Origin: a virus
Taxonomy: Duplodnaviria > Heunggongvirae > Uroviricota > Caudoviricetes
DNA length: 14,190 nucleotides
Virus record (IMG/VR): IMGVR_UViG_2778261619_000008
Strand: one strand, 5' to 3'
Shown here one piece after another: positions 6,010-13,071 of the stretch. A model generated the notes under the pieces. It saw only the letters and a list, made by a program, of their open reading frames with translations, was not told where the DNA came from and made no database searches. A program made the translations under genes and the position numbers. The stretch's first letter is position 1. The number at the start of each line of letters is the position of its first letter.

Positions 6010-6230
6010 CACCATGACTCCGCCTTTACAGGTAAACCATCACGACCGAGGAAGACTTTAATCATGCGGTCAGTAATGCATGTTTTTGTGGTCAGGTTAC
6101 GAATATATAGTTTTCGCTTTTTAATATTGTTTGCCGAGGCAATATATGTCCGGCCTTCATGAAGAACATAATCGCCAGGAGTCACACACTGACGTGGTAT
6201 TTCATCAGTTCCGAAGTGATGTGCAATCAT
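6009..6230 (-). CDS. kilR: KilR cell-division inhibitor, 73 aa
   Basis: Within track ORF 6009..6242. The ATG at 6230 ([26 protein letters not shown]...) has a GGAG Shine-Dalgarno 5 nt upstream. Matches Rac KilR. Confidence 0.83.
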
Positions 6231-6671
6231 AATTATCTCCATTTTTACAAATGAACTTTGTTGATGCGGTGCCTGGTGCCTCCAGGTGACTGCAACCAGT
6301 TAACAATTACAGTCGGCTTTCCCACCCAAACCAATAAGGACTAACATGACTTTTAACTGTGCCACGTGCGCTTAGCCGCATTCACCGCATCACAAAATTC
6401 ACTTTAAAAAGGGCGGACATCAGCCGAACTTCAAGAAAAAAACTGATGCCGCCAGGACTACACACAGCAATGTCGTTATTTACAACCGGAGGCGCACTCC
6501 CACCATTTAAATTTAACAGACAAGACCGACTCTTTATGGATATCGGAAATGCGCCTTCGTGTTGTGCCCGGTTTTATTTCACCACCTCCGGGCTTCGGTG
6601 GTCTCGGCTATACCCCTACAGCGAGAGCTTGTGTTAACATTTCAATACCCTTACAGTTGAGAGTTATTGAT

Positions 6672-11300: not shown

Positions 11301-11723
11301 ATGGCAAAAGTATTAACACAGGAAGAGCGAGAAAAAATTAAAGGGCAGATTGTTGATCTCGTACGCCAGAGTGGGCGCGAGACGTTAAGGCAACTGGAGG
11401 CCAAGACAGGGGCGACAAGATATCTGATGAGCATTCTTGCCAGAGAGTTGGTTGCCAGTGGCGATGTATACAACTCTGGCTATGGGTTATTTACCTCTGA
11501 ACAGGCTCGTAAGGACTGGAATAACGCCCGCAAAAAACTATCCAGGGCAAAGGTGAAAAAAACGGTTGTGGTTGATCCTGACCTTATCTGGTCATTACCA
11601 GACGGAGAAATACGCCGATATGACGGGCGTCTGAATATAATCTGTAGCGAGTGCCGTAAGAGCGAAGTTATGAAGCGTGTACTGATGTTTTATCGAGGAA
11701 GTATCCAGGAATTTATTCGGTAA
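11301..11723 (+). CDS. Uncharacterised protein, 140 aa, HTH-like N-terminus and C-terminal CxxC
   Basis: Track ORF 11235..11723. The ATG at 11301 has a GGGGAGGG Shine-Dalgarno upstream (MAKVLTQEEREKIKGQIVDLVRQSGRETLRQLEAKTGATRYLMSILARELVASGDV...). Its N-terminal pattern resembles that of the preceding gene. Confidence 0.6.
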   Translation: MAKVLTQEEREKIKGQIVDLVRQSGRETLRQLEAKTGATRYLMSILARELVASGDVYNSGYGLFTSEQARKDWNNARKKLSRAKVKKTVVVDPDLIWSLPDGEIRRYDGRLNIICSECRKSEVMKRVLMFYRGSIQEFIR

Positions 11724-11859
11724 GCAAAATCAAAATGTAATCGCTCAAGTTTAAGTTGGTGTATCTACGGCGCAGAGCCATCGCCTCATCTGGCACTGCG
11801 CTAAAATCAAATTTAGTTCCACTCTTTATTTTGTATCTGCTAAAACGCTACATAAGATT

Positions 11860-12132
11860 TTACTTTTTTAAAGAATAAGGGAATATGTGCACCATATTGG
11901 AGGCTAGTGGATATATTCCTATGCTACGAGTTGTCTTTTTTAGTTGATCTATGCTTGCTTCTTTATCGGGAGCCCGGCCTCCCCACACTGTAACTCCCTC
12001 AGGTATATCGATTGGGCGACTTTTGTTTTCATCTGTGATTTCAATCGTTTCCCCATTATTAAGCGTAATAATCAACGATGACACGTCCAGGTGTTGTGTA
12101 TTCCCATTTTTATTTTTAATATCTATTTTCAT
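11860..12132 (-). CDS. Orphan hypothetical protein, 90 aa, in an AT-rich segment
   Basis: Track ORF MKIDIKNKNGNTQHLDVSSLIITLNNGETIEITDENKSRPIDIPEGVTVWGG... is hydrophilic with no signal peptide. There is no Shine-Dalgarno, but a perfect TATAAT on the minus strand (plus coordinates 12142-12147) sits where a leaderless mRNA would start. Coding status is uncertain. Confidence 0.35.
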   Translation of the reverse strand: MKIDIKNKNGNTQHLDVSSLIITLNNGETIEITDENKSRPIDIPEGVTVWGGRAPDKEASIDQLKKTTRSIGIYPLASNMVHIFPYSLKK

Positions 12133-12402
12133 GGCTATTTCATTATATGTTATCTGTGCTGGAGTAATAAGTTTACGGTATTAAGAAGCATTTTGACGAA
12201 ACAATCAACTGACTTATCAGCTAAGGTGGCATTGTAATGCGATCTGATTGGTATCATCAGGACGCTGTTCAAAAAAGGGGGATTAGTTGATCTTGAAATC
12301 TTGCTCAAAATGTGTAGCCTCTCGTTTAACTGCCAACTTTTTGGGGCAGTACACTCTGATGCTACACAACTTGCAAGTTTCATTACCCCGACGTAAACAT
12401 TT

Positions 12403-13071
12403 ATGACAGTTGCTGATTTCAAACGTCCTAAGTTGGAGCTCCCAAACGGGGCAAACAAACTACTATTACACTCTTGTTGTGCACCATGTTCCGGTGAAGT
12501 GATGGAGGCTCTTCAGGCCTCAGGAATCGACTACACCATCTTCTTCTATAATCCGAACATTCATCCTCAGAAAGAGTATTTGATTCGTAAGAATGAGAAT
12601 ATTCGATATGCTGAACAACATGGTGTACCGTTTATCGATGCTGATTACGACACTGACAACTGGTTTGAGCGAGCCAAAGGAATGGAATGGGAGCCCGAAC
12701 GTGGGAGGCGTTGTACTATGTGTTTTGACATGCGTTTTGAACGGACGGCGCTGTACGCCGCTGAAAATGGTTTCAGTGTGATCAGCAGTTCACTGGGCAT
12801 TTCTCGCTGGAAAAATATGCAGCAGGTTAACGACAGCGGACGGCGAGCTGTCGCACATTATCCGGGCATGGTGTACTGGGATTATAACTGGCGCAAGCAG
12901 GGAGGCTCGTCCCGCATGATTGAAATCAGCAAACGCGAACAATTCTATCAGCAGGAATATTGTGGTTGCGTGTATTCACTTCGCGATACCAATTTACACC
13001 GCAAATCCCAGGGACGCCCTCTTATCAAAATTGGTCAACTCCACTACGGTAAAGAAGAAGGGCAGGAATGA
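12403..13071 (+). CDS. queH: Epoxyqueuosine reductase QueH-like (DUF208), 222 aa
   Basis: The translation contains the [11 protein letters not shown] motif near the N-terminus and a later CxxC ([16 protein letters not shown]), which I recognise as the DUF208/QueH signature. The RBS is weak. Not verified by search. Confidence 0.75.

Follow-up and report, generated by a model that had tools for sequence, protein, structure and literature searches.

The window analyzed here is a stretch of 14,190 nucleotides (nt) of viral DNA (Caudoviricetes), and the segment under study, positions 11724–12402, harbors a protein-coding gene on the minus strand (11860–12132) that starts with ATG and encodes a protein of 90 amino acids (aa). 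The coordinates and length of this open reading frame (ORF), as put forward in an original prediction made from the letters of the DNA, were verified, and the exact protein is present in RefSeq as WP_000686865.1, where it is called "hypothetical protein" in every occurrence.

As judged from comparison with its relatives, the ORF is a genuine conserved gene. Full-length relatives at 61–94% identity, all of which start with MK[IV], are found in E. coli, E. albertii, Citrobacter, Enterobacter and metagenomes, and a set of species-representative genomes adds Mangrovibacter (74%) as well as Citrobacter braakii and Dryocola (57–58%). Orthologues at 57–76% protein identity retain the frame and the full length in at least nine different genomic contexts, and the pairwise ratio of nonsynonymous to synonymous substitution rates (dN/dS) is 0.11–0.17 against five orthologues, as far as dS is unsaturated. 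A homology search of the protein and a check of the reading frame in related genomes had been proposed as tests of the ORF, and both turned out in its favor, the former with orthologues at 57–94% identity and the latter with a frame that is kept across them. The segment also contains two overlapping ORFs, 11951–12184 on the plus strand (77 aa) and 12150–12458 on the minus strand (102 aa, with a TTG start), which were rejected as spurious because both are interrupted by stop codons in a 95%-identical allele located in a second lambdoid prophage (L028).

The GC content of the segment is 38.4% (0.384), as compared with 45.3% (0.453) for the whole window and 47–52% for the genes to the left, so that the visible AT-richness noted in the original prediction holds up. 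Only 2.7% of the same-length windows have a GC content as low as that of the segment, and comparable AT-richness occurs elsewhere in the window, e.g. a GC fraction of 0.37 near position 589.

The insert between the DUF977 and QueH genes

The gene is part of a foreign insert of approximately 620 base pairs (bp; 11736–12353), the limits of which were obtained from comparison with empty sites and with L028. The insert lies between a DUF977 family gene (11301–11723, plus strand), which was assigned by annotation and family scan and is the last gene of the replication module, and a gene for a prophage-borne epoxyqueuosine reductase, QueH (12403–13071, plus strand; PF02677, E value 1.2e-65). In Ecol_732 and many other E. 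coli prophages these two genes are 174 nt apart and the spacer is unrelated to the insert, which makes it an empty site. Among 5426 complete E. coli genomes, QueH and/or the neighboring DUF977 gene are matched in 3167 and the insert is present in 42, with copies that are at least 99% identical; AMSCJX02, 13TMH22 and EcPF15 are examples of carrier strains, and by Megablast, the region shows 100% identity in several E. coli chromosomes. A search of 50,697 GenBank phage records brought up no copy of the block, one of 2.9 million IMG/VR contigs brought up 6, and relatives are present on plasmids of Pantoea, Citrobacter, Klebsiella and Burkholderia. In L028, the insert, the insertion sequence (IS) scar described below and the start of QueH form one block with 95.4% identity over window positions 11736–12538, the L028 prophage being otherwise different, with Cro/DicB-type immunity.

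Within the insert, blastn against a Citrobacter chromosomal locus without IS150 (L002) marks out the core of a transferable unit (11844–12221), comprising the gene, 16 nt downstream of it and 89 nt upstream of it. The two share this core at a DNA identity of 76.6%, and the similarity goes on with insertions and deletions to approximately position 12300. The remaining 108 nt on the left (11736–11843) are not common to the Citrobacter locus and, among the complete E. coli genomes, occur only in carriers of the insert. They include a hairpin of 10–11 bp (11781–11812), seen in the centroid fold of both strands as two short stems split by a single-base mismatch, which lies between the stop codons of the convergent DUF977 gene and the 90-aa ORF. 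The hairpin is not followed by a U-tract and is not, as a result, a canonical intrinsic terminator; consistent with that, a terminator scan returned no intrinsic terminator in the segment.

At its other boundary the insert ends with 37 nt (12317–12353, plus strand) that are left over from the terminal inverted repeat on the right side of IS150, the match to that end being 35 of 39 nt (E value 3e-6). The remnant stops at an ACA|CTCTGATGC junction, identical to that of the intact 1443-bp IS150 which strain 755 carries in its DUF977–QueH spacer with a CTC target duplication at the flanks; its end coincides both with this IS150/CTC junction and with the empty site of Ecol_732. The shared junction suggests, at the level of sequence, that the block entered the slot or was fixed in it by an IS150-associated rearrangement, following which most of the IS was deleted. 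The original prediction had taken the gene for horizontally acquired accessory cargo, and that idea is borne out by its presence in 42 of the 5426 E. coli genomes, the empty slot in related prophages and the IS150 end at the boundary. As a separate observation, the DUF977–QueH neighborhood has been struck repeatedly by elements of the IS3 family: besides the intact IS150 in the spacer of strain 755 (L014, 397–1839), an IS3-family element with a frameshift lies within the DUF977 gene of strain SW07164 (L013, 777–1895).

The position at a prophage end, which was also part of the original prediction, has to be given up. The annotated record NZ_CP031105 shows a Rac-type lambdoid prophage adjoining ttcA, and the window covers its left part; the gene order is intR, xisR, rcbA, ralR, recT, recE, racC, kilR, sieB, a pair of cI/cro-like helix-turn-helix regulators, ydaT, the replication-module genes ydaV, DUF1627 and DUF977, then the 90-aa ORF. 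To the right of the ORF come QueH, an oppositely oriented DUF1971 gene, DUF1367/DUF1364/DUF1133 and two tRNAs, and after these the genes for lysis and the tail. The integrase is approximately 11 kb to the left of the segment and at least 13 kb of prophage, including the lysis and tail genes, extend to its right, so that the ORF is internal, at a depth of approximately 12 kb, with the replication module on one side and the nin/Q-like region on the other, and is oriented antisense to the phage early-rightward genes.

Several other features of this prophage were seen alongside. The QueH gene is carried by the prophage, whereas the enzyme that belongs to E. coli itself is QueG, and the 17 nt preceding its annotated ATG contain no Shine-Dalgarno sequence. 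There is a second cargo gene that runs against the early genes of the phage (13683–14027, minus strand); it encodes a protein with a DUF1971/TehB-like N-terminal domain (PF09313, E value 2.7e-26; phrog_34268) and sits in a further stretch of low GC content (0.37–0.41). A scan of the whole window against Rfam (E ≤ 1) gave no match within 11724–12402; elsewhere it gave a full-length match (225 bits, gathering score 170) to RalA, the antitoxin small RNA (sRNA) of the RalR/RalA type I toxin–antitoxin system, at 1557–1735 on the plus strand, and, side by side on the minus strand of the kilR–sieB intergenic region (6223–6466), two matches that stay below threshold, DicF with 39.1 bits (gathering score 48) and STnc100 with 35.5 bits (gathering score 47). 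In this Rac variant, the two may mark a DicF-type sRNA locus that has diverged.

Start of translation

The 25 nt upstream of the ATG read ACAGATAACATATAATGAAATAGCC and contain no GGAG, GAGG or AGGA, while a perfect TATAAT is present at 12142–12147 (minus strand), ending 9 nt before the A of the ATG; on both counts, the absent Shine-Dalgarno sequence and the hexamer a few nt upstream, the original prediction had described the allele correctly. The promoter scan did not call this site, because the sole −35 candidate at 17-nt spacing, TTATTA, matches the consensus at 3 of 6 positions; there is also no TG extension as in an extended −10 element. By chance, approximately 1.2 occurrences of TATAAT are expected in the segment on both strands.

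A different picture of the start region emerges from the orthologues. Upstream regions from nine other genomic contexts were aligned or inspected, seven upstream regions being included in the alignment, and all nine orthologous loci have a GAGG or GGAG Shine-Dalgarno sequence 4–7 nt before the ATG, e.g. AGAGAGGTTTTT-ATG, GGAGAGGATGCA-ATG, GTGAGGCTTTG-ATG and CAGGAGTATATTG-ATG, as compared with TGAAATAGCC-ATG at the same place in the window allele. The decayed Shine-Dalgarno sequence is located at 12138–12141 (minus strand), where the window has GAAA, seven of the nine loci have GAGG and the other two (L025 and L026) have GGAG; the window allele is also one base shorter here, with CATATAAT in place of the CATACAAG or CATACCAG of the closest orthologous loci. 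The TATAAT aligns with TACAAG or TACCAG in the closest orthologues, and among the seven aligned upstream regions it occurs only in the window and L028. Since the closest orthologues combine TACAAG or TACCAG with a Shine-Dalgarno sequence, the state that lacks this sequence and bears TATAAT is, going by the alignment, a derived one, confined to the copies located between DUF977 and QueH in lambdoid prophages (window and L028), and the leaderless look of the gene is in the same sense peculiar to this allele.

The sole element that is invariant in the seven aligned upstream regions is a TAATA block approximately 47–51 nt before the ATG (12179–12183), which is intact in the window allele. In the window and its closest relatives it is preceded by TTGATT 17 nt upstream, so that a tentative ancestral promoter can be drawn at 12179–12208 (minus strand), with TTGATT (12203–12208) placed 17 nt upstream of CTTAAT (12180–12185). 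This candidate family promoter, weakly indicated by the conserved letters, would give a leader of approximately 40 nt. Inspection of the conserved 5′ region by eye brought up no convincing LexA, Fur, sigma-32 or sigma-54 motif. The start region itself is predicted to be largely unfolded, with a minimum free energy of −4.1 kcal/mol over 101 nt and a z-score of +1.55 (192 of 200 shuffled sequences reach the same stability or a higher one); a start region of this kind, unstructured and A/U-rich, allows Shine-Dalgarno-independent initiation on leadered mRNA.

The original prediction held that any transcript would be essentially leaderless. The corresponding model is that the window allele is transcribed from the TATAAT at 12142–12147 as a (nearly) leaderless mRNA, which would be translated by direct binding of the 70S ribosome to the 5′-proximal AUG, as is the case for lambda cI from PRM. 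It can draw on the perfect −10 hexamer that ends 9 nt before an ATG without a Shine-Dalgarno sequence, on the retention of this configuration in the second allele at 95% DNA identity and on the excess of synonymous changes in that lineage (see below), by which the ORF is probably translated somehow. It has to be noted, however, that transcription from a promoter of standard geometry starts 6–8 nt after the −10 hexamer, and, because the hexamer ends 9 nt upstream of the ATG, the predicted transcript would have a leader of 2–4 nt instead of a 5′-terminal AUG, which lowers the prospects of leaderless-type initiation. The model is further disfavored by the poor −35 match, the missing extended −10 element and the silence of the promoter scan at this site, by the Shine-Dalgarno sequences of the nine orthologous loci and the absence of TATAAT from every aligned upstream region outside the lineage, by the approximately one TATAAT that chance alone would supply in so AT-rich a segment, and by the conserved upstream TAATA block, which the window allele has kept. 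A leaderless transcript is for these reasons considered unlikely, although it deserves to be kept in mind.

Another way of reading the same changes is that the gene has become a recently silenced passenger, which lost its Shine-Dalgarno sequence, is translated little or not at all and has an intact ORF because too little time has elapsed for it to decay. The decay of GAGG to GAAA together with the 1-nt deletion relative to the closest orthologues would fit such a history, the 42 E. coli copies are so similar (at least 99% identical) that they hold little information on selection, and H-NS commonly silences foreign DNA of high AT content in E. coli. Against it stands the comparison of the two alleles without a Shine-Dalgarno sequence, from the window and L028 (protein 94%, DNA 95% identity), which differ by 6 synonymous and 5 nonsynonymous changes at 59.5 synonymous and 210.5 nonsynonymous sites with the frame intact (p ~0.02 for the synonymous excess in our own binomial estimate). 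This excess suggests that the protein is still made in the lineage; both of the overlapping alternative frames gained stop codons over an equal distance, and the unstructured A/U-rich start region supports initiation without a Shine-Dalgarno sequence. Silencing is thus regarded as a somewhat poorer explanation than a leaderless transcript. Taken together, the features of the start region put translation from a leadered mRNA slightly above an even bet and ahead of both the leaderless model and, a little further down, the silent gene.

Protein family and possible function

No curated family accounts for the 90-aa protein, in agreement with the earlier statement that it has no recognizable motif: scans against Pfam, PHROG, NCBIfam and PADLOC gave nothing above threshold, the best subthreshold matches being BapA_N (12.2 bits, cutoff 27), NF033677 (14.5 bits, cutoff 35) and phrog_14215 (E value 0.051), with none from PADLOC. 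An exhaustive HMMER search over 1.84 billion representatives retrieved 37 proteins at E ≤ 1e-3, 12 of them at E ≤ 1e-10, and the resulting family, which spans Gamma- and Betaproteobacteria, has two architectures, a single-domain one of 85–110 aa and a two-domain one of 160–210 aa. Profile searches add many two-domain proteins of 174 aa from Acinetobacter nosocomialis, A. baumannii, Citrobacter and Kluyvera as well as proteins of approximately 100 aa from Burkholderia and Paraburkholderia, none of which has a Pfam domain or an informative name; the profile search brought up the domain in one or two copies per protein and in no case fused to a different domain. In a Pfam scan of 36 family members all matches were subthreshold, namely to SH3-like families (Myosin_N, LSM, DUF1344), BapA_N and DM13, and the NCBI name "DM13 domain-containing" given to one relative is by the same scan unsupported. 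The phmmer hits to giant LapA/BapA adhesins (P0022, P0032 and P0039) were likewise rejected as homologues, their scores being those of a hairpin motif of 15–30 residues summed over 10–12 repeats; giant adhesins of this type are a source of false homology for the family. A literature search by RefSeq and UniProt accessions returned no papers, and one for QueH together with prophage returned nothing relevant.

The family is characterized by the conserved motifs NG-x-T-x-E, (V/I)WGG(R/K)-x-P and YP-x-A-x-N-x-x-H-x-FPY. Its invariant residues are W50, G51, G52, N79 and P85, and E31 alone among possible catalytic residues is nearly invariant, a pattern that looks structural rather than catalytic. 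The members are soluble, mostly mildly acidic, and none is markedly hydrophobic. The structure search that had been proposed for the product yielded, from an alignment of 36 sequences, a confident AlphaFold2 model (predicted local distance difference test, pLDDT, 92.1; predicted template modeling score, pTM, 0.78) with seven β-strands and one helix. On the basis of the scans and this model, the 90-aa protein belongs to an undescribed, uncurated family that is possibly new in structure as well. The existence of two-domain relatives (P0017 and P0089, for example) suggests that the single-domain form works as a dimer.

The genomic contexts of the relatives, of which at least 15 are available, have in common that the gene is always solitary and has no recurring neighbor. 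They include islets in the chromosomes of Enterobacter, Citrobacter and Scandinavium, a Paraburkholderia replicon with Rep3 and ParAB, and the junction of a P2-like prophage in Citrobacter. Orthologues at 68–75% identity lie after or near the tail-fiber genes of lambdoid prophages in E. coli (L009, L010 and L011) and E. albertii (L029 and L030), at sites which are exchangeable cargo loci of such prophages, and there they adjoin cdtABC, two NleG effectors with an OspG kinase, or a type IIG restriction–modification gene. The 174-aa two-domain relatives are widespread in A. nosocomialis and A. baumannii; in two Acinetobacter loci (L016 and L018, 4249–6525) such a relative is divergent from a gene for a 478-aa toxin with a PAAR motif, which has its own downstream (immunity) gene of 142 aa, and a DUF2247 gene lies approximately 3 kb away, while in two others (L015 and L017) the relative is kept and no PAAR gene is called.

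These contexts bear on the idea that the protein confers orphan immunity to a polymorphic toxin, of the type VI secretion system, contact-dependent inhibition or colicin type, and is kept on mobile DNA for the protection that it affords. That the gene is small, cytoplasmic, solitary and patchily distributed, that tandem-domain versions exist and that the Acinetobacter relatives adjoin a pair of PAAR toxin and immunity genes, with a DUF2247 gene nearby, is all in line with this idea. The relatives are, however, never in an operon with a toxin, being divergent from the PAAR gene in Acinetobacter and persisting where no such gene is called; neither in the window nor in most other contexts is there a toxin gene near the gene; a co-oriented toxin gene directly upstream was not seen in any of the at least 15 contexts; and the lack of a Pfam match means that the protein belongs to none of the immunity families of Pfam. 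In its one testable point the idea fails, because the gene is never found downstream of a toxin, and it is accordingly rated as improbable, below either of the two alternatives for the start region. Finally, the proposal that this frame is open by mere chance, in noncoding DNA of high AT content, to which the lack of a Shine-Dalgarno sequence, a family match, a consensus promoter and a terminator might lend itself, is refuted for practical purposes by the full-length orthologues at 57–76% identity in at least nine contexts with dN/dS of 0.11–0.17, by the wider family with its 12 representatives at E ≤ 1e-10 and by the confident AlphaFold2 model.

Proposed explanation and comparison with known systems

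In the model that we favor, with a probability of roughly one half, the segment represents a foreign AT-rich block of approximately 620 bp in the middle of a Rac-type prophage, which holds one functional gene, entered in association with IS150, is expressed from a leadered mRNA and provides a solitary binding protein. The block would have entered or been fixed in the DUF977–QueH slot through an IS150-associated rearrangement, leaving the outer 37 nt of the right end of the IS behind. The normal signal of the family would consist of its own promoter approximately 50 nt upstream and a GAGG Shine-Dalgarno sequence, the latter of which has presumably mutated to GAAA in this allele, the same stretch now happening to read TATAAT. 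Translation would then most likely proceed in a Shine-Dalgarno-independent manner from a leadered mRNA on the unstructured A/U-rich start, a truly leaderless transcript being less likely. In the last and weakest step of the model, the protein would work without a partner gene, probably as a dimer given the two-domain fusions, and would serve, by binding or inhibiting a host or incoming target in stoichiometric fashion, as immunity-like or exclusion-like cargo of lysogenic conversion, and not as an enzyme. The role of a stand-alone cytoplasmic binding or inhibitor protein of this kind is thus proposed with low confidence.

Several points weigh against this model. The evidence for IS150 is one 37-nt end, with no left end and with no donor configuration found. 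The promoter scan of the window and of three orthologous loci showed no consensus-grade promoter at a conserved position, which reduces the upstream promoter, as far as the sequence goes, to a conserved TAATA block. The loss of the Shine-Dalgarno sequence could alternatively mean that the gene is silent in this lineage. The five AlphaFold2 models span pLDDT values from 72 to 92, and the search for a structural neighbor of the AlphaFold2 model in PDB or BFVD gave none. As for the function, the guess draws on context and on the lack of catalytic-looking residues among the invariant ones.

A more far-reaching version of the model would make the protein the founding member of an undescribed family with a β-rich fold unlike any solved one, represented by proteins of one or two domains in Enterobacterales, Acinetobacter and Burkholderia/Paraburkholderia. 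The protein would act alone as a mobile one-gene factor of phage exclusion or toxin immunity and move between chromosomes, plasmids and prophage cargo slots, having been rewired in this prophage lineage to Shine-Dalgarno-less, possibly near-leaderless, expression. This version is speculative, and we would not expect it to hold in full.

A prophage cargo gene beside an IS scar is a known kind of thing, as it belongs to ordinary prophage mosaicism. What gives the locus a wider meaning is the small-protein family, which is uncurated, has clear motifs, is under strong purifying selection and has a confident model without a PDB or BFVD match, and which in consequence suggests itself for a new Pfam entry and for study of its structure and function. 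Its orthologues recur in exchangeable lambdoid cargo loci beside the Cdt toxin, NleG/OspG effectors and a restriction–modification system, which are the usual places of defense and virulence factors. The window also offers a clean natural allele in which a Shine-Dalgarno sequence was lost and a perfect −10 hexamer was gained within the same few bases while the gene is still constrained, and which could be used to compare Shine-Dalgarno-independent with near-leaderless initiation. The significance would grow if an activity in defense, immunity or host modulation, or a genuinely new fold, were demonstrated.

With respect to known systems, the protein has a short β-hairpin motif (hhhxLxNGxTxEI) in common with the BapA prefix-like and LapA repeat domains. 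It is nevertheless not a member of either group, as the Pfam BapA_N match reaches 12.2 bits (cutoff 27) and covers 20 residues, its C-terminal WGGR and YP-A-N-H-FPY motifs have no counterpart there and it carries no secretion signals. The IS150 remnant equals the right end of this IS3-family element at 35 of 39 nt and has the same junction as in strain 755, but only the outer 37 nt are kept, with neither a transposase nor a left end, which makes it a scar and not an element. The leaderless mRNAs of E. coli and its phages, such as lambda cI from PRM and Tn1721 tetR, resemble the window gene in that they combine the lack of a Shine-Dalgarno sequence with a −10-like hexamer near the start codon. 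They differ from it in that the hexamer of the window, ending 9 nt upstream, predicts a short leader and not a 5′-terminal AUG, in that its −35 element is weak, and in that the arrangement is missing from the orthologues outside the lineage, which have a Shine-Dalgarno sequence.

The fullest comparison is with the morons (in the Hendrix-type definition) or lysogenic-conversion cargo genes of lambdoid prophages, for example bor and lom of lambda or cdt and nleG cargo. The window gene departs from these in having no demonstrable consensus promoter or intrinsic terminator, in a 90-aa product that is cytoplasmic, and in a family whose members are mostly carried by chromosomes or plasmids and seldom by phages (0 of 50,697 in GenBank and 6 of 2.9 million in IMG/VR). 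A conserved TAATA block travels along with the gene, and a hairpin without a U-tract is present. In its other properties it is like them: it is a single extra gene between genes that are adjacent in related prophages, its base composition (38.4% GC) is unlike that of its neighbors (47–52%), it is oriented against the phage early operon, and the slots in which its orthologues sit, beside cdtABC, NleG/OspG and a restriction–modification system, are classical ones for cargo.

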